Of a DNA stretch of 64,000 nt, positions 20,731-59,603 are shown one piece after another (the stretch's first letter is position 1; each line of letters starts with the position of its first letter). Source of the stretch: an uncultured Verrucomicrobiae bacterium (GTDB lineage: Bacteria; Verrucomicrobiota; Verrucomicrobiia; Chthoniobacterales; JAATET01); contig CAVRCI010000002.1 in assembly GCA_963719495.1 (NCBI GenBank), forward strand, positions 96,001 through 160,000. The letters are read 5' to 3'. Position numbers and translations under genes: made by a program. The notes beneath the pieces are model-generated. The model was not told the DNA's origin. It saw only the letters and a list, made by a program, of their open reading frames with translations, and made no database searches.

Positions 20731-21012
20731 GGTCGTCGGGACGGGTCGCAGCGGAAGTGGCAATCGATAGCGTCCGGCAGGAACAAGATAAGGAAGTTGG
20801 GAAGGGGGTGATTTGCTGCAAGAGGTCCGAGTCACTGATGGCATGCACATATCTCCTCGTGATGGCGAAAGCGTGGCAAAAAAGACAGACAAACGAGATT
20901 ACCAGCAAAGCAGAGGGACGCGGAACGATGAGGAGATGATGAGAACGATACTCGGACGAATAAGATCTGAAGGTCGTAAACCGGGCGTTCAAAACAGATA
21001 TATTAGGCGACC
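20731..21012. other. Family E-type cassette (diverged) with GGT/ACC cores
   Basis: Ends GGTCGTC...GGCGACC. Confidence 0.7.
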
Positions 21013-21099
21013 GTCAAGTTCAGCCACCCTGAACGGGTGATGAACAATGACAGATAATCAACTGCCCGTGGTGGGTGGCGCAACCCAGCCGCGCAGCGG

Positions 21100-21537
21100 C
21101 TAAGGGTTGGCTGCAGCGCCTTGTTCGGCTGTATTATCGCTCTTCTTCGAAAGCCGTTCCTTCAGATCAGTTCTTTCACGAATAAAATAGTCGATCTTGT
21201 TCCCGAGAGTCATAAGTGTGTCCTCATTTGAATCTTCACTAGAACGTGCTCGAGCAGATAGATAATCAATGGTCACATCGATCATGTCAGTCTCTACGGA
21301 TGAGATTGACTGGTTGATTTTGGCGGCGGCGTCTTGCTTGCCCTCAGATAATAGAACCGCTCTTTTCACGAGCAAATCTTTGTAGGCCTCCGAGAGAGCT
21401 ACAATCTTGGAATTTTTAATTTGAAGAAGTAGCTGATTGTCAGTGGGAATCGATCGACTGGGGAGTTCATCAGCGTGCACCATCGATGAGGTCGCGATCA
21501 CGGTCGAGAGAAGGAGGTAGGAAAGGCTGAGTTTCAT
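21100..21537 (-). CDS. Secreted helical hypothetical protein
   Basis: Signal peptide ending VHA. Confidence 0.7.
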   Translation of the reverse strand: MKLSLSYLLLSTVIATSSMVHADELPSRSIPTDNQLLLQIKNSKIVALSEAYKDLLVKRAVLLSEGKQDAAAKINQSISSVETDMIDVTIDYLSARARSSEDSNEDTLMTLGNKIDYFIRERTDLKERLSKKSDNTAEQGAAANP

Positions 21538-21736
21538 TGTTGCTAATTGGAATTTAAGGTTTGAGTGAGCTTTGGCTTTGTTGAGGAGCGCGATCTCGAT
21601 CCACTTTTTCAGAGCCGAACGTCAAGCTCAGCCACCCTGAGCGGGGCAACGAACGTCTAGGCAAGGTGTTTGCTGGAAGGGGGATCGGTCGGCCAAGGCT
21701 TGCCTCAGGCCGGCTAGGGGTTGGCTGCAGCGCCTT

Positions 21737-22086
21737 GTTCGTCGGAAACGGTGACTGCACAATGGAGGACCTGAGCGTCCGACAGGCTGACGATGATCAA
21801 ATCCAGCAAGCGGCTTCGTTAGAGCATTCAGTCGAAGAGGCCTCTGTGGTCCAGATTGACGACGCATTATAACTATATTGCTCGTGACACGAGAAGGGCG
21901 GAACGGATTCTGGATTGGTCTACTCTTGCCGCGTGAGCGCCCCAAGCGTGCATGGCAGGCGAAAAACCCTTGGCGTCGAATCGGGAGTGATCAATGGAAA
22001 GCCAGAATCGTGCTCAATCGTATGCCGAAGGGAATCGAGCAACTCTAAACTTTCCCTTGATTTTAACCCCAATAAATCAGGCGAAC
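21737..22086. other. Non-coding cassette family A, copy 3
   Basis: Homologous to 468-817. Confidence 0.8.
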
Positions 22087-22176
22087 GTCAAGCTCAGCCA
22101 CCCTGAGCGGGCAATCAAGCCAACCCCACGGCGAGCTGCCAATAGCGGGACCGAGCAACCCCAGCCAGCGAAGCGG

Positions 22177-22653
22177 CTAGGGGTTGGCTGCAGCGGCTTG
22201 TTCGGCTGTATTGATGCTCAATATCCGGTCGGCTTCAGTCCTCGAAATACCTCTCAGGAGCCCTATCTTCAAACCGTCCGCCTCAAGCGAAATATACCAA
22301 GCCTCTTCTCTCGTGGCGGTTATCCGATAGATCATTTGAGGCATGTGCTCCTGTGTTGTCCCATGCCAAAACAGAAGTGCGTCGTCGCATCGTCGATCTA
22401 GATACAGATTCAGGTTCTGTTCGCTTGTTCGGAGGCCATGAAGCAGGCTTTCAGGATTGACTGGCTTATACCCATTGCCAGATTTAATAAAATGATCTTC
22501 GGAAAGAATGCGGTTTGGATGGAATGGGGGGACGGTAAGTTGCAGTTTTCTGACGGCTACGGCGCCCATGAGCTTACCTGAAAAGTTTAGCCACTTCGCA
22601 TCGAACCATCCGTCGATACATATCCGAACGCAAAATACCTGGCTGATACGCAT
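22177..22653 (-). CDS. Hypothetical protein
   Basis: ORF filling the cassette; start uncertain. Confidence 0.6.
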   Translation of the reverse strand: MRISQVFCVRICIDGWFDAKWLNFSGKLMGAVAVRKLQLTVPPFHPNRILSEDHFIKSGNGYKPVNPESLLHGLRTSEQNLNLYLDRRCDDALLFWHGTTQEHMPQMIYRITATREEAWYISLEADGLKIGLLRGISRTEADRILSINTAEQAAAANP

Positions 22654-22819
22654 CGGAGAGGCGCCGAAAGATGTGATTGGGTGAATGCATTTTATTCGAG
22701 CCGAACGTCAAGCTCAGCCACCCTGAACGGGTGATGAGGAACGACTGGTGATCAACTGCCGATGGCGGGTGGCACAACCCCAGCCAGCGGATTGGCTAGG
22801 GGTTGGCTGCAGCGCCTTG

Positions 22820-23710
22820 TTAGGGCTTATTGCCTTCTTCGGGAAGTTCGAGTTGAGAGTATCGAATCTTTTCTTTGACGTCGTAAACTTTAAGGACTTG
22901 ATAGCGATAACCGACGATTTCTCCTTCGGCAGTCTTGAGCAGTGTAATCTCGAGCAGTGCATCAATGGCGTCCCCAGATTTCAGCTCAATCGTGCGCTCA
23001 TGGAAATCTCGTAGCCATTCAGAATCTAGGATCTTTGCTCTGATCACTCTTCCCTGCATATAAAGATCCCATTGGGAATCACCGATCAAATCGGGTTTCT
23101 TGACAGGTAGGATAACGCGCGTCGGTTTGCTGACTGGGATGAGTTCGAGAAGCTCTTCTTCTAGCGAAGGAGAGATGCTGATCTCTTTCGAAATTGTTCG
23201 TCGAATACTTTCTGACGTGTAGATCGCCGAATCTTCTCGTATGAGCAAACGCGTAGATCGCTCGAAGGATTGTAGCGTCGCTAGAATACGATGAAGCGGA
23301 ACTGGGGCGGGGTGGGGGAGAAGCTGCGTAGGTGCCTTAGATGCAATCTCCAGCATTGCTCGTTGATAGTCTTCAAGTTGCTGCCGAGTCGTGATAGTCG
23401 GCTCCTCTTCGAGGTGCTTCAACAAGAAGTCTCTGCCGTCGTCGAGCATGCGTCCCAAGACCTTCTTCCAGTCTCCGTCGCGAAGTGCCTCCTTGTTTGG
23501 GGTATTCAAAATCCATCGGAATATGGCTTTAAGTGAACCTTTCTCAATATCGTGAAGAAGGGTTGTGGATGCTAATGGAAGATCAATTGAATCAAGGAGT
23601 TCGTTGTCAAAACGATCGAACGAGTCGATCAATCCAGCCATTGAGTGAAACACTCTTGCTGGATTTGGCGTGTCTGGAACGAAATCAATAGTTATGTCGT
23701 ATTGTTGCAT
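22820..23710 (-). CDS. Hypothetical protein (296 aa)
   Basis: Long ORF filling the cassette; stop in the attC core. Confidence 0.8.
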   Translation of the reverse strand: MQQYDITIDFVPDTPNPARVFHSMAGLIDSFDRFDNELLDSIDLPLASTTLLHDIEKGSLKAIFRWILNTPNKEALRDGDWKKVLGRMLDDGRDFLLKHLEEEPTITTRQQLEDYQRAMLEIASKAPTQLLPHPAPVPLHRILATLQSFERSTRLLIREDSAIYTSESIRRTISKEISISPSLEEELLELIPVSKPTRVILPVKKPDLIGDSQWDLYMQGRVIRAKILDSEWLRDFHERTIELKSGDAIDALLEITLLKTAEGEIVGYRYQVLKVYDVKEKIRYSQLELPEEGNKP

Positions 23711-23852
23711 AATTGTATGGCCCTAACGTCAAGCTCAGCCACCCTGAGCGAATGACCGAGCCAACCCCGAGGTGAGCTGCCAATGGCGGCACCGAGCAAC
23801 CCCAGCCAGCGAAGCGGCTAGGGGTTGGCTGCAGCGCCTTGTTAGCTAGCAT

Positions 23853-24344
23853 TTATTTTTCTGAGATAAAAGCTTTGTAAACTTCAGAAGTTTCCTCAGG
23901 ACTAAGAATTGTTATAACTCCGGCATCGGAAATCTGATATACGTATTTTATCGAAGCCGAATTTCTGAGTAAACCAAAATACAGAATAATGTAGGAGTCT
24001 TTCGATATCTTCGGTAGGAAGGCCTCCAGAATGTAGATGTTGACCTCTTCTGAAGCAGTAATGTAGTCGTGTGAAATTTGTCGAACATTTGAAGTAACTA
24101 TTGATGATAGTATTATCTGACCATCGTAAAAAATACTCCATTGGCTGTAGTCGATCGGACTCTTCGATTCTTTCTCCGGAGTCCATGACCTTAAAAGAAT
24201 ATGTCCGTCTTTAATGATTGTTTCAACAGTAGCAGATTTACCATTTATTATAATGGTAGAGTTCGTGTTCTCAAAGGCAGAAAGCGAATGAGGAAGTAAC
24301 AAGAATGCTAAAATTGCTTGGATGATTGCGTGTTTCATATTCAT
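23853..24344 (-). CDS. Secreted hypothetical protein
   Basis: Signal peptide. Confidence 0.65.
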   Translation of the reverse strand: MNMKHAIIQAILAFLLLPHSLSAFENTNSTIIINGKSATVETIIKDGHILLRSWTPEKESKSPIDYSQWSIFYDGQIILSSIVTSNVRQISHDYITASEEVNIYILEAFLPKISKDSYIILYFGLLRNSASIKYVYQISDAGVITILSPEETSEVYKAFISEK

Positions 24345-24466
24345 AATAGCTAACGTCAAGCTCAGCCACCCTGAGCGGGCAATCGAGCCAACCCTGAGGT
24401 GAACTGCCAGTAGAGGGTCCGCGCAATCCCAGCCGCGAAGCGGCTAGGGGTTGGCTGCAGCGCCTT

Positions 24467-24848
24467 GTTCGGCTCTAACCGCACAAGCTACGAAGGGTGT
24501 TGCAATCACGATGCCAACCCCTCCTTGAATTTGACCGTATGCATTTTACTATTGGCCGTTCGGATAAGGGGGAATGCCGTAAACTAGATGAAACTGAGCA
24601 GCGTGTGGAATGAGATAAGACTGGAACCGCAGTCAAAAAGTGGGACCTGAGAATGACCAAAAGATTTCGCTTTCGCTTCGCGAAAGAATGCGGATGAAGG
24701 ACTGATGGTGGAATTTCGGTGATCCGTCGCCGATGGTTCATCTTCGGAGCACTGCTGGGCAACATCATATTTTATAGCTCCGTCAAGCGGTGTTGGGAGC
24801 GATCAACAAGTTGCTCAGACGATATCATCCGCCGGAGGCAAGCCGAAC
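24467..24848. other. Non-coding cassette family F, copy 2
   Basis: Homologous to 7121-7500, same attC interior. Confidence 0.65.
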
Positions 24849-24963
24849 GTCAAGCTCAGCCACCCTGAGCGGGGCGACGAAAGTCTAGGAAAGGTGTTTG
24901 CGGGAAGGGGATCGGTCGGCCAAGGCTTGCCTCGGGCCGGCTAGGGGTTGGCTGCAGCGCCTT

Positions 24964-25314
24964 GTTCGTCGGAAGAGGTGACTGCACAATGGAGGACTTG
25001 ATCGTCCGACAGGCCGACGATGGGTCAAACCCAGCAAGCGGCTTCGTTAGAGCATTCAGTAGAAGAGGCTTCTGTGGTCCAGATTGACTACGCATTATAA
25101 ATATATTGCTCGTGACAAGAGCAGGCCGGAACGGATTCTGGATGGATCTACTCATGCCGCGTGAGCGCCCCAAGCGTGCATGGCAGGCGAATAATCGTTG
25201 GCGTCGAATCGGGAGTGATCAATAAAAAACCAGAATCGTGCTCAATCGTATGACGAAGGGAACCGAACAACTCTGAACCTTCCCTTGATCTCAACCCCAA
25301 TAAATCAGGCGAAC
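24964..25314. other. Non-coding cassette family A, copy 4
   Basis: Homologous to 468-817. Confidence 0.8.
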
Positions 25315-25440
25315 GTCAAGCTCAGCCACCCTGAGCGGGTGATCGAGAAAACTTTGAGATGAACTGCCGGAAGCGGGACCGAGCAACCCCAGCCAGCGAA
25401 GCGGCTAGGGGTTGGCTGCAGCGCCTTGTTCGGCTGTATT

Positions 25441-25836
25441 TCATTCGAGGTGTGCGATGGTCCTCGAAAATTCGGGAAGTCCCAATTTGACAGAGACGAC
25501 AGAAAACTCGTGATCGGTGAGTGGTCCAACTACTGAATCTTCTGGGTTTGCATAGACGCAATCTTTGGATGTGTCTAAGTAGAAGAAATTTGTAACCGCG
25601 CGATTGTTGTTAGGATGCTGCTTTGCAACGATGTATTTTTGATTGTATCCGATGGAAAAGACCGTTTCAGGTATCCTTCCGATTGCTGAACCATCACCCG
25701 AGTCGTAGGAAACGTTCATCTGTGAATCTGTATCAACGGCGATCAATCGATATGGTCCGACGATCTCTTCATCATGCACGAACCCGCAGCCGACAAAGCA
25801 GAATGCCGTAATAAAATAGAGCGAAAGTCGAATCAT
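25441..25836 (-). CDS. Lipoprotein, DUF3997-like
   Basis: Lipobox FVGC; IPETV..IGYNQKYIVAKQHP. Confidence 0.7.
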   Translation of the reverse strand: MIRLSLYFITAFCFVGCGFVHDEEIVGPYRLIAVDTDSQMNVSYDSGDGSAIGRIPETVFSIGYNQKYIVAKQHPNNNRAVTNFFYLDTSKDCVYANPEDSVVGPLTDHEFSVVSVKLGLPEFSRTIAHLE

Positions 25837-26046
25837 TGGTATTTAGAGGACTCCGGTGACCGATAGCAGAAGAAGTGGCAATATTCTCATATTGCTCAGG
25901 AATATTTCATCCACCGGAGGTCGAGCCGAACGTCAAGCTCAGCCACCCTGAGCGGGGCAACGAACGTCTAGGCAAGGTGTTTGCGGGAAGGGGATCGTTC
26001 GGCCAAGGCTTGCCTCAAGCCGGCTAGGGGTTGGCTGCAGCGCCTT

Positions 26047-26396
26047 GTTCGTCGGAAGAGGTGACTGCACGATGGAGGACCCGATCGTCCGACAGGCCGA
26101 CGATGGTCAAACCCAGCAAGCGGCTTCGTTAGAGCATTCAGTAGAAGAGGCTTCTGTGGTCCAGATTGACTACGCATTATAAATATATTGCTCGTGACAA
26201 GAGCAGGCCGGAACGGATTCTGGATGGATCTACTCATGCCGCGTGAGCGCCCCAAGCGTGCATGGCAGGCGAATAATTCTTGGGGTCGAATCGGGAGTGA
26301 TCAATGAAAAACCAGAATCGTGCTCAATCGTATGCCGAAGGGAATCGAGCAACTCTGAACTTTCCCTTGATCTTAACTCCAATAAATCAGGCGAAC
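26047..26396. other. Non-coding cassette family A, copy 5
   Basis: Homologous to 468-817. Confidence 0.8.
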
Positions 26397-26509
26397 GTCA
26401 AGCTCAGCCACCCTGAGCGGGCATTCAAGCCAACCCTGAGGTGAGCTGCCGATAGCGGGACCGAGCAACCCCAGCCAGCGAAGCGGCTAGGGGTTGGCTG
26501 CAGCGCCTT

Positions 26510-26792
26510 GTTCGGATCCGCCCGTTCGTGGTCCCGTCGGATCTACAATTTGCAGCCTTGCTCGTCGCCATGCCGATTGATAATCGAGCCATACCAGCGA
26601 GTCAGACCGATGCGCTTCGCTACGAAAATTGACGTCGAATGGAATGCGCAAAAATACCTTGGTTTTGGCTTTCAGATACACAAATTCACCTCATTGTGGA
26701 CCCCTTCCGAATACGCCAATTTTATACAAAGCAAATTACGAACGAGCTTGCTTGCAGTTTGGGCTTCGAAGACCAGGGGCATAGGTCCGAAC
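26510..26792. other. Non-coding cassette family C, copy 2
   Basis: Homologous to 14686-14968. Confidence 0.7.
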
Positions 26793-26882
26793 GCCAAGCT
26801 CAGCCACCCTGAGCGGGTGACCGAGCCAACCCTGAGGTGAGCTGCCAGTAGCGGGACCGAGCAACCCCAGCCAGCGAAGCGG

Positions 26883-27398
26883 CTAGGGGTTGGCTGCAGC
26901 GCCTTGTTCGGCTGTATCTTTTATCGGCGCGGGCTCGATCTGAGAAAAAACATAAACAATCTTTCCGTCATTAATGACAGGTGCGGCGATGATATATCGA
27001 TTGTATTTGCCAAAGTGATTGATCGAAAATGCGGCATTAATTGCAGCTACTTGCTTTGGAGCTATTGCAATTGGTTGGTGCGACAATCGCGATGGAATCT
27101 GAAGAGTGATTTCATGTAATGCGTCTGTCTCATCGACTCCGTAAAGTCGAAATCCTCGATTTGGAATCGTTCGAAAATCTATTGTTCCTCTGGGATGCGA
27201 GATTGTCTTAAAATATACTGTTGCCGTCACAAAATCAGAATTCACTGATTGAAAATTGAGTGACACGTTGAATGAATGATCTGGAGGTCCCCACGTTAAA
27301 TGGGTCGGTTCCACATCGAGAATATAGTAGGGCTTATTTAGCGCGCTGGCGGCCGTTAAGAGGCACAAAGAGCAAAAGACTGAAATAGGTAGACGCAT
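26883..27398 (-). CDS. Secreted hypothetical protein
   Basis: Signal peptide ending ASA. Confidence 0.7.
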   Translation of the reverse strand: MRLPISVFCSLCLLTAASALNKPYYILDVEPTHLTWGPPDHSFNVSLNFQSVNSDFVTATVYFKTISHPRGTIDFRTIPNRGFRLYGVDETDALHEITLQIPSRLSHQPIAIAPKQVAAINAAFSINHFGKYNRYIIAAPVINDGKIVYVFSQIEPAPIKDTAEQGAAANP

Positions 27399-27544
27399 TT
27401 TTAAATGAGCCGAACGTCAAGCTCAGCCACCCTGAGCGGGCGACCGAGCCGACCCTGAGGTAAGCTGCCAGTAGCGGGACCGAGCAACCCCAGCCAGCGA
27501 AGCGGCTAGGGGTTGGCTGCAGCGCCTTGTTCGGTCGTATGATC

Positions 27545-27919
27545 TCACTTGATGGGCTCGCCGACGAATACCAAGCAATCGTTCGGATCACCAATGTGAA
27601 ACTCTGTCATGCCGTAATCGCGGTCATGTAGATCTCTTACCTTGTATTGGTCTCGGAAAGTTGAAACGTGCTCCCACAAATGATGAATGTCTACAACCTG
27701 AATATAAATCTCAGTGTGCCCTCGAACCGCATCCAATACTGACGAATCGGCTGCCTTCATCAGGTGGATTGAATGGGTATCTCGTTCAATAATCGAGTAG
27801 TCGGCTGATTTCATTGTGACCGTGAAACCGAGGATGTCGGTATAGAATGAAATAGATTGATCCATGTCGGCAACTGCGAGCATGGGGCTAATTCCTGTGA
27901 CCTTGAATTCAATATTCAT
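27545..27919 (-). CDS. VOC/glyoxalase/bleomycin-resistance family protein
   Basis: PMLAVADMDQSISFYTDILGF...YGMTEF.I.DPND motifs. Confidence 0.9.
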   Translation of the reverse strand: MNIEFKVTGISPMLAVADMDQSISFYTDILGFTVTMKSADYSIIERDTHSIHLMKAADSSVLDAVRGHTEIYIQVVDIHHLWEHVSTFRDQYKVRDLHDRDYGMTEFHIGDPNDCLVFVGEPIK

Positions 27920-28096
27920 TTTGAGAACAGTTTAGTAACTGAGTATTGGAAGATTTTACGCGAATGAATTATGAATTTCATCCGCCGGAGGCTTCATGGA
28001 CCGAACGTCAAGCTCAGCCACCCTGAGCGGGCAAACAAGCCAACCCTGAGGTGAGCTGCCAATAGCGGGTCCGAGCAACCCCAGCCAGCGAAGCGG

Positions 28097-28657
28097 CTAG
28101 GGGTTGGCTGCAGCGCCTTGTTCGGCTGTATTGCGTTTCGAAGTAGTTTCTGGTTGAGCAAGTAGTGGCTCCAAGACAACTCTGAGATCATCAGGGTTGT
28201 AATGCTTGCTCTGGCGAATGTGTCTAATCGGAATCTGAGCGCCAGTCATGATCTCGTCGACTAATATATCTCGTTGCTGTCGGGATCTGAGTCTGTGGCT
28301 AGAATCGTCAAGTTCAATAACGGCGATGATGTCATAGGTGAGGCGATTACATATGACAAAATCCACGTGTTTCGAGGATATCTTGTTGAATGCTCGTATA
28401 TATTCTTTGTTTTTGTGTATTTTCGCTGGTTCCACAATGTCAGCGAGTCTGACCTTCCCTGTCACGGTGAAAGTCCGGGGAATCACTTGTCGAAGAACCT
28501 CAAGAAATTGCAGCTCAGGGGCTGTGTATAGGGACTGTCGAGAGACGTATCTGAAAGACGTTGATTGCGACCGAGCTGTATTGAGAGCCTTGGAAACAAA
28601 CTGAAGAATCAGTAGGATTGCAACGAGAGCGACAGTCCATGGAAGTATTTCACTCAT
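28097..28657 (-). CDS. DUF2726 domain protein with N-terminal TM
   Basis: KVRLADIV...KHVDFVIC...IELDDSSH...RD motifs. Confidence 0.88.
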   Translation of the reverse strand: MSEILPWTVALVAILLILQFVSKALNTARSQSTSFRYVSRQSLYTAPELQFLEVLRQVIPRTFTVTGKVRLADIVEPAKIHKNKEYIRAFNKISSKHVDFVICNRLTYDIIAVIELDDSSHRLRSRQQRDILVDEIMTGAQIPIRHIRQSKHYNPDDLRVVLEPLLAQPETTSKRNTAEQGAAANP

Positions 28658-28786
28658 TGTATGAAAGCCGAACGTCAAGCTCAGCCACCCTGAGCGGGCA
28701 ATCAAGCCAACCCTGAGGTGAGCTGCCAATAGCGGGAACGAGCAAGCCCAGCCAGCGAAGCGGCTAGGGGTTGGCTGCAGCGCCTT

Positions 28787-29287
28787 GTTCGACGCGCATC
28801 TGTTCAATCTACGCATATCGTGACTTCCTCAAGCCAACCCCTCCGTATCTCTACCGAAGGCACTCCAATAATGAAGATCAAACCTTCGAAGAGGCTTCGT
28901 GATTGGAATCACTGAAATGCGATTGGAAGATTGTAGAGAGTAAAGGCTGAACTGGAGCGGGAGGCTTGGGATCAAGCTCACAAATATACGTCTGGAAGTT
29001 TGTAGGGGGTAGAGGCTTAATTGGAATAGAGAGGGGGCATCAAGCTCACAAATAGAAGCTTAAAACGATTGTTGGGACATCTGGTGACTTCCGAACGATT
29101 GGTCGAAAATCAAAATATTCTATCCGTTGAGAAACTGTGTTTGTTGCCTAGGCCCCGATCCTCCGTCCTACGCTAGTCAAAAAAATAGAACCCGACCGCT
29201 TGAAACAAGATGTGGTGTTCCCTGACGGCGTCCGAATATGTAAGAGCGAAATATAGTCATCCGCCGGAGGCTCACAATGAGTCGAAC
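28787..29287. other. Non-coding cassette family D, copy 2
   Basis: Homologous to 18932-19433. Confidence 0.7.
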
Positions 29288-29412
29288 GTCAAGCTCAGCC
29301 ACCCTGAGCGGGCAACCAAGCCAACCCCACGGTGAGCTGCCGGAAGCGGGACCGAGCAACCCCAGCCAGCGAAGCGGCTAGGGGTTGGCTGCAGCGCCTT
29401 GTTCGGCCCTCA

Positions 29413-29820
29413 TTATAGAATTCGAAACCTTTGCTTCGTATTCTCTGGCCAACCATGAAAAATCGAAATCATTTGAACGGCGTAGAAGCTTCTGATGATA
29501 CAGATCTGGAATGGGGACTCACCGGATCTGTAGACGACTAAAACCCCATCTTTTCTAAGTGATAGAATTGCAGACTCATCCTCTTGAAAATTTACGGAAA
29601 ATGATGTGCCGTCCTTCCGGTAGACTTGAATAGTTGGAGGATTAGCCGTAAAGGAAACATGTCCGGAGCGAAATCCTTCGAAAAGCCCGTAGTAGATGGA
29701 TAGTGAGTTATCGTCAGTTAACTCGAACTTCAGTGGGATGAGATACTGTCCGCGATCCTGAATGGACTCTTTGTAATAGAGTCCGCAGACGAGCGGGAAC
29801 AAGAAATGGCGTCTAGACAT
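29413..29820 (-). CDS. Hypothetical protein
   Basis: ORF filling the cassette. Confidence 0.55.
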   Translation of the reverse strand: MSRRHFLFPLVCGLYYKESIQDRGQYLIPLKFELTDDNSLSIYYGLFEGFRSGHVSFTANPPTIQVYRKDGTSFSVNFQEDESAILSLRKDGVLVVYRSGESPFQICIIRSFYAVQMISIFHGWPENTKQRFRIL

Positions 29821-40677: not shown

Positions 40678-40694
40678 ATCTTTGATTCCACGAT

Positions 40695-45132: not shown

Positions 45133-45154
45133 TTGATGTTTGGTGGGAGAGGTT

Positions 45155-50505: not shown

Positions 50506-50899
50506 GGTCGTCGGGACGGTTCGTGGACAAGATGGCCGGCCGTAGCATCCGACAGGGGCTAAACCGTGGAAGTCAGGAACAATTCAACCACATGGACCGA
50601 GGCTCGAGCCAGACTGGTCGTGGAAATATTTTATCGTGATGGTTAAAATGTAGTCGAAACAGATCAATCAGCGAAGTCGCCGGGGCGCAAGCTCGACCCG
50701 GCTCTGCGGGTGGAGCGGCGAGACTCGGAACGGCGGAAGGAGATCGGAGAGGTGGACGAGGGCGTCTGTGACGAGGGGAGTCGGCGGATGGAAGGGGAAA
50801 GGGGCATCCAGTCGAACTCCCTCGGCTCAGTCGCTCGATCGAATCAAAAGCGAGCGTTCTTAAACCGAACTCAATCATTATTTTTTGTATAAGGCGACC
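50506..50899. other. Family E cassette with GGT/ACC cores
   Basis: Homologous to 31982-32375. Confidence 0.7.
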
Positions 50900-50989
50900 G
50901 TCAAGCTCAGCCACCCTGAGCGGGTGATCGAGCCAACCCTGAGGTGAACTGCCGGTAGCGGGTTCGAGCAACCCCAGCCAGCGAAGCGG

Positions 50990-51262
50990 CTAGGGGTTGG
51001 CTGCAGCGCCTTGTTGGACACGCATTTCATTCTGTCCAAAGTCGCCAAATGCAATCCCTCGAAATGACAGGTCTTCGTCAAGCTCGGACCAATGGATACC
51101 AAATGGTGAAAGCTCGTATTGTCTGAGCTGTGTGTCTGTTGCTGACGCTAATCGTGGATTCTCCGAAACTGGAAACTTCAACTTGCTGCCATCCGTCATT
51201 GAAATGATAACATGACGATTGGAGATCAGTGCTGACAATGGTCTATTGATTAAGGTGTTCAT
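50990..51262 (-). CDS. DUF2442 protein (putative TA component)
   Basis: PRL..AT..QL..YELS..GIHW.ELDEDLS motif. Confidence 0.85.
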   Translation of the reverse strand: MNTLINRPLSALISNRHVIISMTDGSKLKFPVSENPRLASATDTQLRQYELSPFGIHWSELDEDLSFRGIAFGDFGQNEMRVQQGAAANP

Positions 51263-51479
51263 TCCAAACTTTGACGATGAGTTCCTTGTTTTCCTCCGCG
51301 AGTTCTTGCGCTTTCGATAATTCTTTAACCTTCAGTCCAGATGATTCACGCAACTCCACAATAATATCAAGGTTAAAAACCGCTTCCCCTCCACCCTTTC
51401 GGACGTGAACGTGAATCGGTTCATGATCATTGCTGTAGAAAAAGAATTTGAATCCGTCTTTTTTGAAAACAACAGGCAT
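51243..51479 (-). CDS. DUF4160 protein (HicA-like putative toxin)
   Basis: MP.V...GFKFFFYSNDH.P.HVHV motif. Confidence 0.88.
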   Translation of the reverse strand: MPVVFKKDGFKFFFYSNDHEPIHVHVRKGGGEAVFNLDIIVELRESSGLKVKELSKAQELAEENKELIVKVWNEHLNQ

Positions 51480-51736
51480 ATTTGAGAAATACAGTCTTAC
51501 CTGTGCCCGCGCACGTAAATTCTCGTGGCGGGCTTCCCCCGGTGCTGCCTGACTAATTTGCGCGATGTAATTGCGTCTTGTCGGCTCGGCGGCTGCACTT
51601 CATCCGCCAGGGGCTGTCCAACGTCAAGCTCAGCCACCCTGAGCGGGCATGCAAGCCAACCCTGAGGTGAGCTGCCGGTAGCGGGACCGAGCAACCCCAG
51701 CCAGCGAAGCGGCTAGGGGTTGGCTGCAGCGCCTTG

Positions 51737-52249
51737 TTAGCCCTGTATTGCCTTCGTTGATGGGTGTATCTGGATCTCCGATTTGCCCTCGGGTTGAACT
51801 ATAATTCCTTCCTCGTTCTGCTCCATGTTGTTGCGCCAGATTCTCCAGAAATCCCCGATAGGTCCGACCTCACGATATCTGTATTTTCGGGGCTTCGAGG
51901 CTTCGGCGTAGGAAATGCGCACTGTCTCTCCGTCATCGTTGAAGATGACTATAGCGTCTTTCTGAAAATCGTCTTCCTGCACAAACCTCCAAGCTACCCA
52001 GAAAGCTGCCTTCCCATCATTTGTGAGAAATAGGGAATCAAATTGGAAATCGTGGGAGAAAGACCAAAGCTTCAGCCATGGAATGGTCGTTGATCTAATC
52101 GAATGATTGCCTGATTCGGGATCCACTAATATAAAATGCTCTTTGTCCGGCGAATATACGCGATGCTTCTTCGGTTCCTCGTATGATGTTGCGCGGGCAC
52201 AAACGAGCGAAAACAATAAGAGTGTTGGGGCAATGAATCCTTTTTTCAT
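51737..52249 (-). CDS. Secreted hypothetical protein
   Basis: Signal peptide ending ARA. Confidence 0.7.
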   Translation of the reverse strand: MKKGFIAPTLLLFSLVCARATSYEEPKKHRVYSPDKEHFILVDPESGNHSIRSTTIPWLKLWSFSHDFQFDSLFLTNDGKAAFWVAWRFVQEDDFQKDAIVIFNDDGETVRISYAEASKPRKYRYREVGPIGDFWRIWRNNMEQNEEGIIVQPEGKSEIQIHPSTKAIQG

Positions 52250-52381
52250 GGGCTAACGTCAAGCTCAGTCACCCCGATCGGGTGTCCGAACTACTGGTTT
52301 GTGATCAGCTGCAATCTGATCGTCCGCCAACCCCGAGAGCGAAGCGGCTAGGGGTTGACTGCAGCGCCTTGTTAGACCGTA

Positions 52382-52831
52382 TTATTCTTTTCTTAATACA
52401 TAAACGCCCCACGACTTCACCTTGTCGTTCTGTAGAAACTCAATCTGATTCAATACAAGCGTATCAGACTCAAATTTCATTTCATATAGATTGGCGGCTG
52501 CAACTGTTGGCGTTCCCTGTAATAGTAGCGTCTTTCCCTCTGCGTCTTCCACAATGCGAAAAACCCCATAGTCCATCTTGTCGCCCCCAAGAGGAAATCT
52601 CATCAATCCATCCTTCGCGAATGAAAAGAAGAATTTTGAAGCTTCTGCAATCTCGGCTGAGTCGAGTTCTTGAATAGCACTGTCTTTAGGGCTTTGCTTT
52701 TGAGACGCAGAAAAATCGATGCGCCATGTTCCGATCAATTCAGTCTTAAGTTGATCGAGCGTAGCGCCAGTGGCGGGAGTGGGTCCGATGGCGAGAATGG
52801 CAGCGACTATAAGCAATAATGTGTATTTCAT
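52382..52831 (-). CDS. Secreted lipocalin-like protein
   Basis: Signal peptide; LIGTW motif. Confidence 0.65.
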   Translation of the reverse strand: MKYTLLLIVAAILAIGPTPATGATLDQLKTELIGTWRIDFSASQKQSPKDSAIQELDSAEIAEASKFFFSFAKDGLMRFPLGGDKMDYGVFRIVEDAEGKTLLLQGTPTVAAANLYEMKFESDTLVLNQIEFLQNDKVKSWGVYVLRKE

Positions 52832-53138
52832 GTGATTAGTGGGTTATTGTAGAGATTTCTTGGAAGCTGTCTTTTCCGATTTACTTGAGAGTTGGTTCTT
52901 TTGGTCTGATTATCGGATGCCGGATTTTCATGGTCTAACGTCAAGCTCAGCCACCCTGAGCGGATAATCGGGCCAACCCTGAGGTGAGCTGCCGGTAGAG
53001 GGTCCGAGCAACCCCAGCCAGCGGAGCGGCTAGGGGTTGGCTGCAGCGCCTTGTTCGGCTGTATTGAGACAGTTGATTATATCTTTAGTGATACCTAGCG
53101 AGGTTATGGTGGATTGTCCGTAGGTAGAGATCTCAGAG

Positions 53139-53537
53139 TCAATATTCGGGAACAATATAAGTTCTTGGAAAAATTCTCCAAAATTGTGTTTCAAGAGCGC
53201 GAAGGGGAAGAAAGACGAAACTCGCAGCATGAAGCACTGGTAATAAATCGGCAGATTTGGAGCTAAAATTGAGAAATTGCGCTGGCCCTACGTCATGAAA
53301 ATAGACCTTCTCTGTGTATAAGGTTCCGAACGTGACCGTGTGGATGAATGCTCCGCTCATCCGGAGAACGGAATAACCCAAAAAATATAAAGTGATTAGG
53401 ACGAGGACCACGGGAATGATCTTTAGGCGTATCCTATACTTTCTGCTCCGCGACCGTCTTCTTGGACGAAGACGCGGCAGTCTCCCATGCCGTTTTATAA
53501 ATGCGATATGGCTTTCATTCGTGATTGGCTGATTCAT
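53139..53537 (-). CDS. Membrane hypothetical protein
   Basis: Basic N-terminus followed by a TM helix. Confidence 0.55.
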   Translation of the reverse strand: MNQPITNESHIAFIKRHGRLPRLRPRRRSRSRKYRIRLKIIPVVLVLITLYFLGYSVLRMSGAFIHTVTFGTLYTEKVYFHDVGPAQFLNFSSKSADLLPVLHAASFVFLPLRALETQFWRIFPRTYIVPEY

Positions 53538-53706
53538 GGCGGATTCGGATTCGTGGACATCTACAAGCGTCCGAAAGCGAACAAAATCATCCGCCGGAGG
53601 CTACTTATTGAGCCGAACGTCAAGCTCAGTCACCCCGAACGGGCGATGAGAAACGAGGAGTGATCATCTGCAATCTGGTCGTCCGCCAACCCCGAGAGCG
53701 AAGCGG

Positions 53707-54138
53707 CTAGGGGTTGACTGCAGCGCCTTGTTCGGTCTTTCTGTGAACGAGTTGGATGAGATCCGCCATAGTTTTTGAATGAAGCGCTTCATGATCTGTG
53801 ATCTTGATATTGAATCTATTCTCGAGTTCGACAACTATCTCGACGTCTGCCATCGAATCAATATCCCAGATAGCTCGAAAATCTGATGAGAAGTCATCTG
53901 TTGGTTCAAGTCCAGTAAGATCTATATCCAGTTGTTCGAAAATGACTTCTCTTACTCCAAGGACGACGTGCTTTGGATAGTTTGTGTCTCGGAAGAATTT
54001 GTTGTAAAATTCGTCGCCCGATCGGTCTGGTCGCGTTTTTAGTAGATTTTGAATTGTTTTTTTTGGCTCGACTTCAAATTTGAAGTAGAGAAACAAAAGA
54101 ACACCACAGGTCACAATTGCAGCTATTGTTGTGAGCAT
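53707..54138 (-). CDS. TM-anchored acyl-carrier-protein-like protein
   Basis: DSMADVEIVVELENRFNIKI phosphopantetheine-site motif. Confidence 0.75.
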   Translation of the reverse strand: MLTTIAAIVTCGVLLFLYFKFEVEPKKTIQNLLKTRPDRSGDEFYNKFFRDTNYPKHVVLGVREVIFEQLDIDLTGLEPTDDFSSDFRAIWDIDSMADVEIVVELENRFNIKITDHEALHSKTMADLIQLVHRKTEQGAAVNP

Positions 54139-54335
54139 CAATATTTGCTAGTTGGCCTGCGTTAATCGTGAGCTTCGTATTTTATCCGCCGGAGGCTGTA
54201 TGACCGAACGTCAAGCTCAGCCACCCCGAACGGGCGAGCGAATTTGTCTGGTGATCTTCTGGAAGTTGTGGGTCCGCGCAACCCCAAGAGCGAAGCGGCT
54301 AGGGGTTGGCTGCAGCGCCTTGTTCGGCTGTATTG

Positions 54336-54728
54336 CTATCCTGATATCGAATACCAGTAGATGCCGGGTTCAATCTTTTCATATCTTACGCCTTCAGTTT
54401 GTTCGTGATCCAATGGGTCGTAGCCAGCAGGTGGAATGTAAAAACCTTGCTCTTTGCTGACCCACTTGAAAAATAGAATCGTTGTTCCGTAATCTGTAGA
54501 TCGAACAAACTTCGGATCTACTTCACGAATTTCGTTGGGCCAGTCGCTTTCCGGAATGTCATATTGATAACTCTGTTCTTGTTCGAGAGCTTTCAAATTT
54601 AACGAGCGGGTGCTTGTGACGAGTGCTCGGGTATCGATCGAACTGAGCTTGCGCAAAGCTGATGGCTTCGGGCTACACCCAGAGACGATTAGCGCGAATG
54701 CCAGATATGCTGCTATTCGAATTATCAT
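54336..54728 (-). CDS. Lipoprotein
   Basis: Lipobox IVSGC. Confidence 0.75.
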   Translation of the reverse strand: MIIRIAAYLAFALIVSGCSPKPSALRKLSSIDTRALVTSTRSLNLKALEQEQSYQYDIPESDWPNEIREVDPKFVRSTDYGTTILFFKWVSKEQGFYIPPAGYDPLDHEQTEGVRYEKIEPGIYWYSISG

Positions 54729-54892
54729 AAATTGTTGAGCGCGTTAAGCAGTGCATTACAGACGACTCACCAATATATCATCCGCCGGAGGCTGAGCCGA
54801 ACGTCAAGCTCAGCCACCCTGAGCGGGCAATCAATCCAACCCCACGGTGAGCTGCCGGAAGCGGGACCGAGCAACCCCAGCCAGCGAAGCGG

Positions 54893-55558
54893 CTAGGGGT
54901 TGGCTGCAGCGCCTTGTTCGGTCCGCTCGGTCGATCCGAGTCTAGCGCACAGTTGTCGATATACCCATATCGCCGCAATGATTGGAATAATCAATCCGAG
55001 TATTCCCCACGGCTCTTTCGGAACATAGGTAAAACCCTCCTTGGTAGGAATGATGGCTGAAGCTACGTCGGTCATCCACAGCCAAAACACAACGCATGTT
55101 GCAGCGAACGATACGCGACTAAACAACTGATTGGATGGTGGGGTAGTAATCGAAAGAAATTTCAGAATGAGAGAAATGAGAAGAAGGTAGGCGGGATAAG
55201 CGAGCAGACATCCGAAAAGAGACGAGGTTGAGAATGCTATTTCTTCAGGGAGGAACCGTGGAGTAATAGTTGAAAGGCATGATAACGTTAAGAGCGCGCA
55301 GAACACCGATAAAATTCCCGCAATCCATCTTAGGGATGAGATACTGCATCTTTTGATTAGCTTTATGCCATGAACAACCGGAATGATCCCCAAAATGACC
55401 ATCAATGGCGAAGTCGTGAGAATGAATGCGACATTGATCGCTTGGATGTCCGCAACACGGAATTGTTCTATAAGTGGCTGCAGGGCAAGTGCTACCCATA
55501 AAGCCCCGAATATTGTAGATGATCCTCCTATGAGCTTACGACGTTGACTTGTATTCAT
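54893..55558 (-). CDS. Multi-TM membrane protein
   Basis: About six hydrophobic segments. Confidence 0.75.
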   Translation of the reverse strand: MNTSQRRKLIGGSSTIFGALWVALALQPLIEQFRVADIQAINVAFILTTSPLMVILGIIPVVHGIKLIKRCSISSLRWIAGILSVFCALLTLSCLSTITPRFLPEEIAFSTSSLFGCLLAYPAYLLLISLILKFLSITTPPSNQLFSRVSFAATCVVFWLWMTDVASAIIPTKEGFTYVPKEPWGILGLIIPIIAAIWVYRQLCARLGSTERTEQGAAANP

Positions 55559-55685
55559 ATTTTGAGACCGAACGTCAAGCTCAGTCACCCCGAACGGGTG
55601 CTGAGGAAAATGGTGTGATCAACTGCAATTTGACCGTCCGCCAACCCCGAGAGCGAAGCGGCTAGGGGTTGACTGCAGCGCCTTG

Positions 55686-55910
55686 TTAGACCCGCATTGT
55701 ATTATCTATGAAAGTTTCTCCGCCTGCTTGGTTCTGCGGCATCAATACTTCATATTTTGGTCGCTCTCCCTTTTTTTCCAATTGGATGTGAATGTCAGAT
55801 ACCATTTTTTCAATCTTATCTTTTTCCTCTGGAAGCTTTGCGTCCTGCAATAAACGCTGAAAGAACAATAGGGCGTTCTGCTCATCTCCTTTGGTGTATG
55901 CGTATGTCAT
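55686..55910 (-). CDS. Small helical protein coupled to the Ntn protease
   Basis: ATGA overlap at 55907-55910. Confidence 0.65.
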   Translation of the reverse strand: MTYAYTKGDEQNALLFFQRLLQDAKLPEEKDKIEKMVSDIHIQLEKKGERPKYEVLMPQNQAGGETFIDNTMRV

Positions 55911-56728
55911 AGTTTTGAGTTCGTTTCTTGGTCTAGTAGCTTGTAGAGTTCCTTCTGTGCAATCCATTGGAAGCCGCGATAGTTTGTTACGAGTGCGATA
56001 TCAATATCGCCTCCAACAGTCGGCATTCGACCGGAAAATCGCTGGTAATCTGCCGTAGTCCTTATCAAGAAGCGCGCGTAATCGATGGCGTCTTGAAGCG
56101 AAAAGACCGTGTAGTTAGCACCGGTTCCCTGCTGTCCCCATAAAAGACTTACCACTGATCCATCCCCGGACCAAGTGCAGCCGATGGAATCGTATGTTTC
56201 GTGTGTGACCTGTTTTCCAATATGAATCAGTCTCGTTTGTGCGATTGGGTCGCCGTGTGCATCTTTGGAAAAACCGACAAAATGAAAACCAAGTGGTGCC
56301 CAAGTATCTGGAATAAGGTCTAGCGATAAGTTTGATTTGCTGAGTTCCGTGACTAACTGATTGTGAAAATACGTTGAGACTGCCTCCGAAAGTAGCTCAA
56401 ACTCGTCTTCTCCATCGGGAGCAGTCGGCAGAGTTGGATTTAATGCCGTAACGTGGTTGTAGATGCTTCTACCATTGACGTAAGCATTCCCATTGGTGGC
56501 GATTCCAAATTTGGAACTTATTGGAAAAAGTTTTTGGGCATACGGCCAAGTTGAGACGGGAACAGAAAGAGGTGGGGCAGCAACATCCTCAATCAACATA
56601 TCCTCACCGCAAGCCTTACACTGAGCGTTGAGATTCATCTTCTGGTTGATCGGGCTACTTACAGTAGAGAGGCTGTCGGATGCGATAACGATTCCGTCCG
56701 GAACTCTAAGAGATACATTTAATGTCAT
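55907..56728 (-). CDS. Proteasome-beta/Ntn-hydrolase-type protease
   Basis: M-T start, DGIVIASDS, QKLF, SG, TVGGDIDIALVT motifs. Confidence 0.75.
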   Translation of the reverse strand: MTLNVSLRVPDGIVIASDSLSTVSSPINQKMNLNAQCKACGEDMLIEDVAAPPLSVPVSTWPYAQKLFPISSKFGIATNGNAYVNGRSIYNHVTALNPTLPTAPDGEDEFELLSEAVSTYFHNQLVTELSKSNLSLDLIPDTWAPLGFHFVGFSKDAHGDPIAQTRLIHIGKQVTHETYDSIGCTWSGDGSVVSLLWGQQGTGANYTVFSLQDAIDYARFLIRTTADYQRFSGRMPTVGGDIDIALVTNYRGFQWIAQKELYKLLDQETNSKL

Positions 56729-56845
56729 AAGTGGGTATTGTATAATTGGTCTAACGTCAAGCTCAGCCACCCTGAGCGGACAATCAAGCCAACCCGGAGG
56801 TGAGCTGCCGATAGCGAGACCGAGCAACCCCAGCCAGCGGAGCGG

Positions 56846-57214
56846 CTAGGGGTTGGCTGCAGCGCCTTGTTGGGTCTTTCCTTCTTCTATAAACTCGGCA
56901 AGTCGTGTCAATAGACGATCATATCGCTCTTCAGTGATGTGACCGAGTGTTCCAGCGAAGCTGTCTGTTGGAAGGACTGCGAGATACCCAAGTCTGATTA
57001 CAGAAGTCTTCTTCAAACCAGTTTCGGGGAAGTCATCGTCGTCAGCCGAAATGATCTCGTCGAAATCAGGGACAGCCTGACGGAGTTGAGTGCTGACTCC
57101 GCAGACAAGAAGGTCGTTGAATGGCGGAACCACGCGTAGAACAACTACGGGCCGATTCTTGATCCGTCCGTCGGATTGTGGCAGGGGTGTAAGCAGAATA
57201 TCTCTTTCTGTCAT
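56846..57214 (-). CDS. PemK/MazF-family toxin
   Basis: PLPQSDGRIKNRPVVV...VST...GL...S.IR motifs. Confidence 0.85.
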   Translation of the reverse strand: MTERDILLTPLPQSDGRIKNRPVVVLRVVPPFNDLLVCGVSTQLRQAVPDFDEIISADDDDFPETGLKKTSVIRLGYLAVLPTDSFAGTLGHITEERYDRLLTRLAEFIEEGKTQQGAAANP

Positions 57215-57423
57215 GACCGGAGATCAGACAGAAGGTATTCGGGTTCTTCATCACTGTAAGCTTTAGCGAGTGAGGAGATTGCGATTGCCGAGAAGTCAGA
57301 TCTCTCGGATGACTGTTCTCTCAGAACCGTAATAAACAGACTACAGTTGTTTGGAAGCGCATATGGCTCATCCAACAGAATTTGCTGACCGTCGAAGTGG
57401 GCTTTGAGAGTGACATTCGGCAT
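57211..57423 (-). CDS. Putative antitoxin
   Basis: KAHFDGQQI.LDEP...AYSDEEPEY; ATGA overlap with the toxin. Confidence 0.7.
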   Translation of the reverse strand: MPNVTLKAHFDGQQILLDEPYALPNNCSLFITVLREQSSERSDFSAIAISSLAKAYSDEEPEYLLSDLRS

Positions 57424-57595
57424 GCGATATTTCTACCGGATTTTCGAATATCGTGCAAGAAATCGTTCATGGACCCAACGTCAAGCTCAGCCACCCTGAG
57501 CGGGGCAACGAACGTCTAGGCAAGGTGTTTGCTGGAAGGGGGATCGGTCGGCCAAGGCTTGCCTCAGGCCGGCTAGGGGTTGGCTGCAGCGCCTT

Positions 57596-57945
57596 GTTCG
57601 TCGGAAACGGTGACTGCACAATGGAGGACCTGAGCGTCCGACAGGCTGACGATGATCAAATCCAGCAAGCGGCTTCGTTAGAGCATTCAGTCGAAGAGGC
57701 CTCTGTGGTCCAGATTGACGACGCATTATAACTATATTGCTCGTGACACGAGAAGGGCGGAACGGATTCTGGATTGGTCTACTCTTGCCGCGTGAGCGCC
57801 CCAAGCGTGCATGGCAGGCGAAAAACCCTTGGCGTCGAATCGGGAGTGATCAATGGAAAGCCAGAATCGTGCTCAATCGTATGCCGAAGGGAATCGAGCA
57901 ACTCTAAACTTTCCCTTGATTTTAACCCCAATAAATCAGGCGAAC
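57596..57945. other. Non-coding cassette family A, copy 10
   Basis: Matches copy 3. Confidence 0.8.
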
Positions 57946-58060
57946 GTCAAGCTCAGCCACCCTGAGCGGGGCAACGAACGTCTAGGCAAGGTGTTTGCCG
58001 GAAGGGGATCGGTCGGCCAAGGCTTGCCTTTGGTCGGCTAGGGGTTGGCTGCAGCGCCTT

Positions 58061-58410
58061 GTTCGTCGGAAACGGTGACTGCACAATGGAGGACCAGAGC
58101 GTCCGACAGGCTGAGGATGATCAAATCCAGCAAACGGCTTCGTTAGAGCATTCAGTAGAAAATGCTTCTGTGGTCCAGATTGACTCCGCATTATAAATAT
58201 ATTGTTCGTGACAAGAGCAGTGCGGAACGGATTCTGGATGGATCTACTCATGCCGCGTGAGCGCCCCAAGCGTGCATGGCAGGCGAATAGCCGTTGGCGT
58301 CGAATCGAGAGTGATCAATGGAAAATTAGAATCGTGCTCAATCGTATGCCGAAGGGAATCGAGCAACTCTGAACCTTCCCTTGATCTCCACTACAATAAA
58401 TCAGGCGAAC
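58061..58410. other. Non-coding cassette family A, copy 11 (tandem with copy 10)
   Basis: Homologous to 468-817. Confidence 0.8.
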
Positions 58411-58475
58411 GTCAAGCTCAGCCACCCCGAACGGGGGACCGAACTCTCAGGTTGGTGTGATGGAATGGACGGAAG

Positions 58476-59084
58476 TCAGAGCAACAGTGCCGGGTAGCGG
58501 CTAGGGGTTGGCTGCAGCGCCTTGTTGGATCGCATTTCTCTGTTTTTCGACAATCTTAAAAGTGCACAGATACTCCCGACGAAGATGAGAGTCAGAACAG
58601 TAGGTTCAGGTATGGCGGCAATGGCCTGGGGATTCTCCGTAAAGAAGGGATCCGTGTCAAAATAGATGACCGGAATCTCATCATCTCGCATGTCAAAAGA
58701 GTTGTTGGGAACGAGATTCGCATCCAAGCGGCGTTCCCATTTGATTGCTAGATCGCGGCCTGGACGATTTAGAAGAAATACCAATACACTCCCTTCTGAG
58801 ATTGAAATCGAATCAGTTGTAGCGAAGAGGCTTGTTGAATGAGTTCGAACTTCGTGATTCGTAAAGGATGAATCAAAATTTAGTGTATCACTCCCGTCAG
58901 TCGAGGTGATGGACCATCCGGTTATGTTGGTATCTGTGATCGCACCCAATGTTCCATCAGTCGAAATGAAGCCTGAAGTGAAAAATCCATTCTGGGTTCC
59001 GAAATCGGATAATTGATAAGTTAGAGCAGAAGCACTATGGGCAAGAGCGAGTGCGGAGATAAGAAATGTGAGTGAGGTTTTCAT
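58476..59084 (-). CDS. PEP-CTERM exosortase-target surface protein
   Basis: Signal peptide; IPEP, TM and basic tail. Confidence 0.8.
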   Translation of the reverse strand: MKTSLTFLISALALAHSASALTYQLSDFGTQNGFFTSGFISTDGTLGAITDTNITGWSITSTDGSDTLNFDSSFTNHEVRTHSTSLFATTDSISISEGSVLVFLLNRPGRDLAIKWERRLDANLVPNNSFDMRDDEIPVIYFDTDPFFTENPQAIAAIPEPTVLTLIFVGSICALLRLSKNREMRSNKALQPTPSRYPALLL

Positions 59085-59210
59085 AAATAGATCCAACGCC
59101 AAGCTCAGCCACCCCGAACCGGGGACCAAACTCTGAGCTTGATGTGATGGAATTGACGGAAATCAGAACAAGAGCGCCAGGTGACGGCTAGGGGTTGGCT
59201 GCAGCGCCCT

Positions 59211-59603
59211 GGTCGTCGGGACGGCTCGTAGAGACAACGGTGCGCCGTAGCATCCGACAGGGGCTGAACCGTGGAAGTCAGGACCAACGCGACCATAGCG
59301 ACCGAGGCTCGAGCCAGACTGGTCGCGGCAATATCTTCTCGTGATGGTGAAAAGGTAGCCGAAGCGAATCAATCAACGAAGTCACTGAAACGGAAGCTCG
59401 ACCCGGCTCTGCGGCTGGAGCGGCGAGACACGGAACGGCGGAGGGAGATCGGAGAGGTGGAAGAGGGCGGCTGTGACGAGGAGAGTCGGCGGATGGAAGG
59501 GGAAAAGGGCATCCAGTCGAAGCTGCTCGGCTCAGTCGCCCGCCCGAATCTAAAGCCGACGTCCCTGATCCGAACTCAATCATTATTTTTGTAATAGGCG
59601 ACC
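59211..59603. other. Family E cassette with GGT/ACC cores
   Basis: Homologous to 31982-32375. Confidence 0.7.

Follow-up and report, generated by a model that had tools for sequence, protein, structure and literature searches.

Integron cassettes with a paired GGT/ACC core in a verrucomicrobial array, apparently moved by an ordinary integrase

The stretch of DNA analysed here (the window; 64,000 nucleotides, positions 96,001 to 160,000 of contig CAVRCI010000002.1 from an uncultured Verrucomicrobiae bacterium) is the middle part of a sedentary integron array with 94 attC sites (window 1..64000, minus strand), and our subject is a set of four cassettes within it whose recombination core reads GGT/ACC in place of GTT/AAC. 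We refer to the genome under study as G000, to its five congeners as G001-G005, and to contigs as C1, C2, C7 and so on. Parsing of G000 yielded 212 attC sites across two contigs, mostly on one 828-kb contig (G000:C2), and 209 inter-attC intervals, giving an integron of roughly 200 cassettes. Its large size, the homogeneity of its attC repeats and its place on a chromosome-sized contig identify it as a sedentary chromosomal integron, and in its attC arms it resembles two Verrucomicrobia records (L032, L034). Lying on the minus strand, the array leads away from intI and attI, both of which are outside the window. The intI gene adjoins the array at G000:C2:176417-177349 (plus strand); it is intact and stop-free, its product matches TIGR02249 at 425.6 bits (cut-off 265), and its closest solved relative is 2A3V (E 3e-87). 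The putative attI, assigned from position and conservation, lies near G000:C2:175490 between intI and the first cassette and reads G|TT, as do all six attI sites from four congeners, at six array heads where the left flank is the same.

An earlier note on this DNA had described four cassettes that begin G|GTCGCC on the minus strand, with the G at 21012, 32375, 50899 and 59603, and that carry a matching R'' box, GACGACC, ending at 20731, 31982, 50506 and 59211. Both motifs are where it placed them, each occurring four times in the window versus 0.00 times in 100 shuffles. The cassettes themselves do not end at R'', since their own attC continues for ~115 bp; the coordinates below run from the base after the crossover G to the cassette's own crossover G, all on the minus strand. 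The first cassette (20615..21011) is gene-less, of a 397-bp type, and identical over 397 bp to a copy at G000:C2:53057. Its own attC (20609..20737) consists of R'' GACGACC, TTGGC and then the next cassette's G|TT, with a bottom-strand G.A mismatch at core position 2, and the hybrid attC upstream (21006..21129) joins the neighbour's R'' (AAC) and TTGAC to G|GTCGCC, with a C.T mismatch at position 2. The second cassette (31868..32374) has a gene-less body of a 507-bp type. Its own attC (31862..31988, TTGGC marker) contains an internal inverted repeat (31862-31925, minus strand) that is predicted to pair with L', taking it up in a hairpin that competes with the recombinogenic fold; the upstream hybrid (32369..32495) ends in G|GTCGCC. 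The third, also of the 507-bp type (50392..50898), has its own attC at 50386..50512 and its upstream hybrid at 50893..51019. The fourth (59097..59602; 506 bp) is the copy closest to attI, 34 cassettes past the first parsed one, with its own attC at 59091..59217 and its upstream hybrid at 59597..59722; in both, R'' GACGACC and the TTGGC marker recur and the hybrid again ends in G|GTCGCC.

Within the window (n=94 attC), R' reads GTT at 90 sites and GGT at four, R'' reads AAC at 90 and ACC at four, and GGT and ACC are paired cassette by cassette. When the 207 intervals of less than 3 kb in G000 were classified by core, 189 were GTT/AAC, nine were GGT/ACC, and nine had a single unpaired change. 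A tenth GGT cassette, at an inverted block, is split by an insertion sequence. Nine intact cassettes and one split copy thus carry ACC/GGT where a canonical attC has its conserved AAC/GTT triplet. The earlier note regarded its four cassettes as one diverged family at separate sites. The separate sites and the divergence are as described, but the family is not uniform: one of the four is of the 397-bp type and three are of the 506-507-bp type. Genome-wide there are five copies of 506-509 bp (15-87 pairwise differences) and four of 397-398 bp (0-55 differences). Homology between the two types is confined to the 3' half (nhmmer E about 1e-9), and on sequence grounds a single origin of both is likely.

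In other respects these sites resemble the canonical, VCR-like attC of sedentary integrons: R''-spacer-L''...L'-spacer-R', extrahelical bases in the L stem, a length of 120-130 bp, crossover after G, and homogeneous repeats. The L''/L' inverted repeat with its extrahelical bases has the same L'' and L' as other array sites, with one substitution in one copy. What sets them apart is the core, GGT/ACC for GTT/AAC, whose position 2 cannot pair in hybrids with neighbours. As the earlier note had noticed, the hybrids on both flanks are mismatched in the array, at all four window sites, and pairing returns when a cassette's own R'' meets its own R' (6 of 7 positions match).

The GGT cassettes have been placed singly. 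Upstream neighbours differ for nine of nine intact copies, as do downstream neighbours (9/9), and the flanks of the two copies identical over 397 bp, which are ~64 kb from each other, are unrelated. More widely, none of 120 near-identical pairs (≥99% over full length; G000, G002 and G004), of which 17 pairs in six clusters are non-canonical, has a shared neighbour. The junctions localise the exchange. In seven of the nine intact copies, the cassette's own attC ends in TTGGC before the crossover G, a marker that ends only 8 of the 212 G000 sites (one other site besides these seven), and all nine sites upstream of intact copies end in TTGAC. Because the marker is kept with the cassette while the upstream site reads TTGAC, the exchange can be placed within the two bases that separate the marker from the changed base; judged from these sequences, that two-base window is the IntI cleavage position at the canonical G.

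Published work covers the insertion side. With IntI1, a paired GGT attC recombined with wild-type attI1 at 1.0 times the wild-type rate, wild-type attC with a GGT attI1 at 0.96, and GGT with GGT at 0.71 (Frumerie et al., NAR 2010, PMC2811028, Table 4), and homology was required at the first base of the core only (PMC2811028). The same paper states that all integrons characterised up to then keep GTT and asks why nature keeps it. The natural cassettes are like its engineered substrates, attCaadA7-GGT and attI1-GGT, in bearing the same paired T2-to-G change in both arms, and unlike them in being multi-copy and set in an array with both flanking hybrids mismatched; the paper assayed insertion, not excision from such an array. 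Given the IntI1 rates, insertion of a GGT circle, and later insertions before a GGT cassette, are expected, which leaves excision as the difficult step.

The integrase of G000 looks conventional. VchIntIA (PDB 2A3V) residues T22, Y26, K160, G161 and H271, at or near the cleavage site, are conserved in it, and K101 is R, as in IntI1. The same five residues occur in six integrases from five species of the genus, with or without odd-core arrays. Relaxed or altered specificity had been suggested for this enzyme; no alteration is apparent, and relaxation, although real, is a known property of ordinary IntI, so that on sequence evidence a special integrase seems not to be needed. We consider it probable that an ordinary IntI has excised these gene-less cassettes with matched cores singly and reinserted them at the normal bond.

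Paired core changes are not confined to G000. In about 780 kb of congener arrays (from G001, G002, G004 and G005, the last partial; G003 was left out), GAT/ATC cores were found in 28 of 189 cassettes in G002 and 26 of 368 in G004, with three GAT/ACC cassettes besides (one contig); no non-canonical paired core was found in G001, in the partial arrays of G005 or in the second G004 array. The GAT cassettes, about 30 copies in each genome (G002:C4:613000-733300, L097-L103; G004:C7:1120000-1435000, L078-L093), are ~440 bp long, apparently gene-less and related to a canonical GTT family. Their ends show extended self-complementarity, over 12-13 bases (11.8/13 vs 8.9). The three GAT/ACC cassettes (G004:C7:1233282, 1130197 and 1122621), two of them near-identical, have a G.T wobble core, which makes a wobble intermediate a possible stepping stone between GAT/ATC and GGT/ACC through two transitions. 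All the paired core changes seen in the genus affect position 2, the tolerant one.

Among other cassettes shorter than 1.5 kb, 949 of 955 have a paired position 2. The 15 genuine unpaired variants are all found in the distal 40% of their arrays, whereas the proximal 60% holds 43 of the 61 paired variants; six rows were left out of the unpaired count (one parsing artefact, two merged intervals and the three wobble GAT/ACC cassettes), and age alone also favours a distal bias of unpaired variants. The confinement of unpaired variants to the old array ends indicates that pairing matters, and mismatched circles evidently seldom return to the array front. Two of the nine unpaired variants in G000 (G000:C2:77361 and 72806) are directly downstream of a GGT cassette. 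Two oddities at G000:C2:39798 and 42119, an extra G ahead of a canonical cassette and a GGT start whose AAC is unpaired, may be plain mutations or traces left by a GGT cassette that was excised out of register by one base.

How a cassette leaves an array in which both of its flanking hairpins are mismatched is the central puzzle. Tyrosine recombinases resolve pre-formed junctions, and we propose that excision takes place on the single bottom strand without use of the two hybrid hairpins, which are mismatched. The GGT/ACC change would have a single origin, in a canonical gene-less lineage that shared the R-box pattern. In the single strand, the cassette's own R' would pair with its own R'', closing the body as a loop, while the upstream R'' would pair with the downstream R'; the two L stems would form as usual, giving four arms without crossing. 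Such a four-way fold would be the junction left by one strand exchange of a circle into an array attC, so that IntI could run the circle-insertion step backwards with both core arms matched, and ordinary IntI could then return the matched GGT circle to an array at the normal crossover bond. Duplication through excision followed by reinsertion has been published (PMC3458562), as has single-step excision from single-stranded DNA (Debatisse et al., NAR 2025, PMC12614218). Our proposal is like the latter model in that one strand exchange on a single strand frees the cassette, and that model supplies the substrate for the proposed fold; as set out in the accessible text of the paper, it uses two separately folded attC hairpins, and the self-paired four-way fold is a proposal of the present analysis.

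Constrained DNA folding gave median costs for GAT cassettes of 18.5 kcal/mol in the two-hybrid form vs 6.0 kcal/mol in the four-way form in G002 (10 of 29) and 18.8 vs 8.0 kcal/mol in G004 (10 of 23); for GGT cassettes the costs were 18.5 vs 15.4 kcal/mol (8 of 9 copies), and for canonical cassettes about 8 vs 6-13 kcal/mol (four sets of 8-14). The four-way fold brings GAT cassettes back to canonical cost, and predicted core pairing in mismatched hybrids is ~0, against 0.14 in ordinary hybrids. These modelled energies fully support the four-way fold in GAT cassettes but only partially in GGT cassettes. Two other routes were considered: serial copying from the newest copy was rejected, divergence being unrelated to array distance in 10 family-array sets, and tandem copies, as a way of escape, are at chance among GAT cassettes (2/29 in each genome) and absent among GGT cassettes. 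The four-way route is our best single proposal for GGT excision, unproven, with plain mismatch tolerance in excision as the alternative. We advance it tentatively, as a possibility suggested by modelling, that excision proceeds through the self-paired four-way fold instead of two neighbour-dependent hairpins and that short cassettes multiply in this way as semi-autonomous elements with private cores.

Several results weigh against this picture. For GGT cassettes the four-way fold gains only ~3 kcal/mol and is still about 7 kcal/mol above canonical cost, and the preference for it is partly built in, as mismatches penalise the hybrids. Predicted core pairing in the circle attC has a median of 0.07 for GGT (mean 0.26, n=9), against 0.76-0.89 for canonical cassettes and 0.87 for GAT, and the GGT cassettes do not share the extended end complementarity (6.1/13). 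The core-tolerance data come from IntI1, not from the G000 enzyme, and no excised circle has been observed. A near-identical twin was found for two of nine GGT cassettes, compared with 22 of 53 canonical ones, although the numbers are small, and there is no GGT copy among the first 34 parsed cassettes. The TTGGC marker is missing from three of the ten GGT copies, and in two the attC interior is 93-94% similar to that of a canonical 465-bp family; on the sequence evidence homology-driven exchange is also at work, in one or two events. Chimeric attC sites with a GGT-type left end and a 465-bp-family interior occur at G000:C2:77759 and 38020.

Ordinary two-hairpin excision is a credible if unlikely alternative: IntI would tolerate the position-2 mismatch, or would fold one site and read the other as double-stranded attI- or attG-like DNA. 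It predicts the same crossover and the same single-unit mobility. AAC is retained on the cleaved strand of a cassette's own hybrid, which is the strand that K160 and K171 contact (PMC2811028); movement is evident for the three GAT/ACC wobble cassettes, which include a pair of twins; and insertion at attG, with a GWT consensus and some excision, has been described (bioRxiv 10.1101/2022.09.11.507474). GGT is outside that GWT consensus, however. The one mismatched attC core tested with IntI1 fell from 2.2e-3 to 6e-6 (PMC2811028), and its mismatch is the same as that in the hybrid upstream of a GAT cassette. The near-zero predicted core pairing in hybrids and the restriction of unpaired variants to old array ends also argue against this route.

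The earlier note had favoured an altered or specially relaxed integrase and mismatched hybrids that lock neighbouring cassettes in place. Both hybrids are indeed mismatched, and integrases of sedentary integrons can act specifically on attC sites of their own kind (PMC12614218). IntI1, however, already accepts GGT (PMC2811028), and the unchanged contact residues are common to congeners without such cassettes. As to locking, near-identical twins were found for 14 of 61 non-canonical members of high-copy families and 75 of 224 canonical members (Fisher p=0.12), in a test in which the donor copy is unidentifiable and circles may have come from kin. Canonical cassettes directly upstream and downstream of a non-canonical one had a younger single twin in 8/61 and 5/62 cases, versus 58/609, with the two arrays of the G004 contig, 79 kb apart, counted as one for 'younger'. 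A several-hundredfold block should leave almost no twins, so these rates speak against locking: neighbours were duplicated at normal rates, and no repeated blocks appeared in the 120 twin pairs. The lower twin rate of GGT cassettes, which is not significant, would fit a milder mobility penalty, and there may be one, especially for GGT cassettes; these may simply be slower, and the 10 copies against 30 are consistent with this. We infer that GGT cassettes are slowed at most, not locked, and regard the altered-integrase explanation as highly improbable.

Alternatively, IntI might only reinsert circles that form independently of it, through slippage or homologous recombination between the attC repeats on either side. 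This route likewise yields a matched GGT/ACC circle, and the three copies that lost the end marker, together with the two 465-bp-like attC interiors, are in its favour. Crossing over in the long shared attC blocks (15-23 bases) would remove the marker, however, and its retention in seven copies, which are up to 17% diverged in the 507-bp type, disfavours such an origin; this argument covers GGT only, the GAT cassettes having no marker. Attachment-site interiors are also no closer to the upstream site than to random sites (0.66 vs 0.67). We judge this explanation highly improbable.

Segmental duplication or sequencing error is exceedingly unlikely: an array inversion flanked by insertion sequences is on record, yet the GGT copies share no flanks, the change is common to 10 diverged copies, and contigs from two public runs of one study, which may be the source sample, agree at the core of the 32375 copy (GGT in both runs, ACC in one, no other letter listed), a read check that covered this copy and not the 397-bp copy.

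The bodies of the GGT cassettes appear to be non-coding. No conserved reading frame is present, as stops and 1-base indels vary between copies, and variable sites are spread evenly over codon phases (28/31/30). None of the three open frames tested had a Pfam match. A hidden reverse gene in the 507-bp type was considered and rejected on the same grounds. No structured RNA was found, either as an Rfam match at E 0.5 in window 20000-60000 or in folding z-scores (-0.5 to 0.9 for four GGT bodies). Beyond the GGT cassettes, their R-box pattern with a position-6 G.T wobble occurs only in the canonical 465-bp family and one G001 cassette; within the GGT cassettes and the 465-bp family, 40 of 40 cassettes with the wobble share the pattern. 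Body homology to the 465-bp GTT family was not detected. The R-box pattern suggests descent from a canonical gene-less lineage that carried it.

The 465-bp family, with about 30-31 copies, is the commonest cassette in G000 and also the first at attI; copies lie at window 340-790, 7490-7960, 21610-22080 and elsewhere. Every congener array has at least one high-copy gene-less family (up to 86 copies in G004). In Vibrionaceae superintegrons, some gene-less cassettes may serve as promoters for downstream cassettes (bioRxiv 10.1101/2023.11.21.568050). The GGT cassettes are like those multi-copy cassettes in being short and without a conserved reading frame, and unlike them in their core, no non-canonical core being mentioned in the abstract or Discussion of that preprint. 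A promoter scan of one 507-bp copy returned one sigma-70-like match (10/12; 32353..32380, minus strand; a consensus match only) spanning the upstream attC end and the cassette start, and no consensus match was found in a 397-bp copy. By analogy, the GGT cassettes are possibly promoter cassettes; selfish persistence is equally compatible.

Searches for relatives used patterns tied to the attC sequence of this genus, so that other integrons were outside their reach. Within that scope, no GGT cassettes were found in 60 relatives (one match, outside the fetched arrays) or in the five congeners, GGT bodies gave short weak matches only among 300 genomes of the order, and the junction pattern was not found in 350. 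A wider scan of genome contigs returned 37 loci, none a GGT/ACC cassette (two were canonical verrucomicrobial attC sites), and two metagenome scans returned 0 loci and 9 loci, none near an attC. The literature, with subscription journals largely missing, yielded neither a natural GGT or GAT cassette family nor a four-way excision model.

Other features of the array were noted in passing. Two copies of a 1.49-kb insertion sequence bracket an inverted 8-kb array block at G000:C2:46666-57122; this insertion sequence has at least 11 near-identical copies in the genome, a second element being nested in some. One copy splits a GGT cassette, and an insertion-sequence element also lies at window about 3913-5397. 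Neighbouring cassettes at window 32493-32954 and 51000-51262 encode a WapI-like immunity protein (PF24716) and a DUF2442 protein. The intI frame (L001:829-2436, G000:C2) is open for ~535 codons, some 200 beyond the integrase domain, and long open frames (561-565 codons) likewise precede intI in three congeners. A second tyrosine recombinase on C1 scores 248.7 bits, under the TIGR02249 cut-off, and no attC array was seen on C1; a separate cluster of five sites of the same attC type lies at G000:C7:38000-41000, on a contig with no integron integrase match.

In summary, the GGT/ACC cassettes look like a natural attC variant that is moved by a seemingly ordinary integrase and is not locked, with published work covering its insertion. 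GTT has been regarded as the only part of integron sites whose sequence is fixed, and the GGT and GAT cassettes are a natural experiment on it: the core varies at the tolerant position only, in matched pairs only, and here in short gene-less families only. They expose a gap in the standard model, in which a private-core cassette should be stuck between mismatched hairpins, yet such cassettes are copied about as often as others. Attachment-site finders that insist on AAC/GTT would miss or merge them.

Looking forward, solving the excision of private-core cassettes would show what excision requires and could give synthetic integrons orthogonal cores. If true, the four-way fold would free short gene-less cassettes from the array-wide GTT convention, with GGT here and GAT in the congeners.

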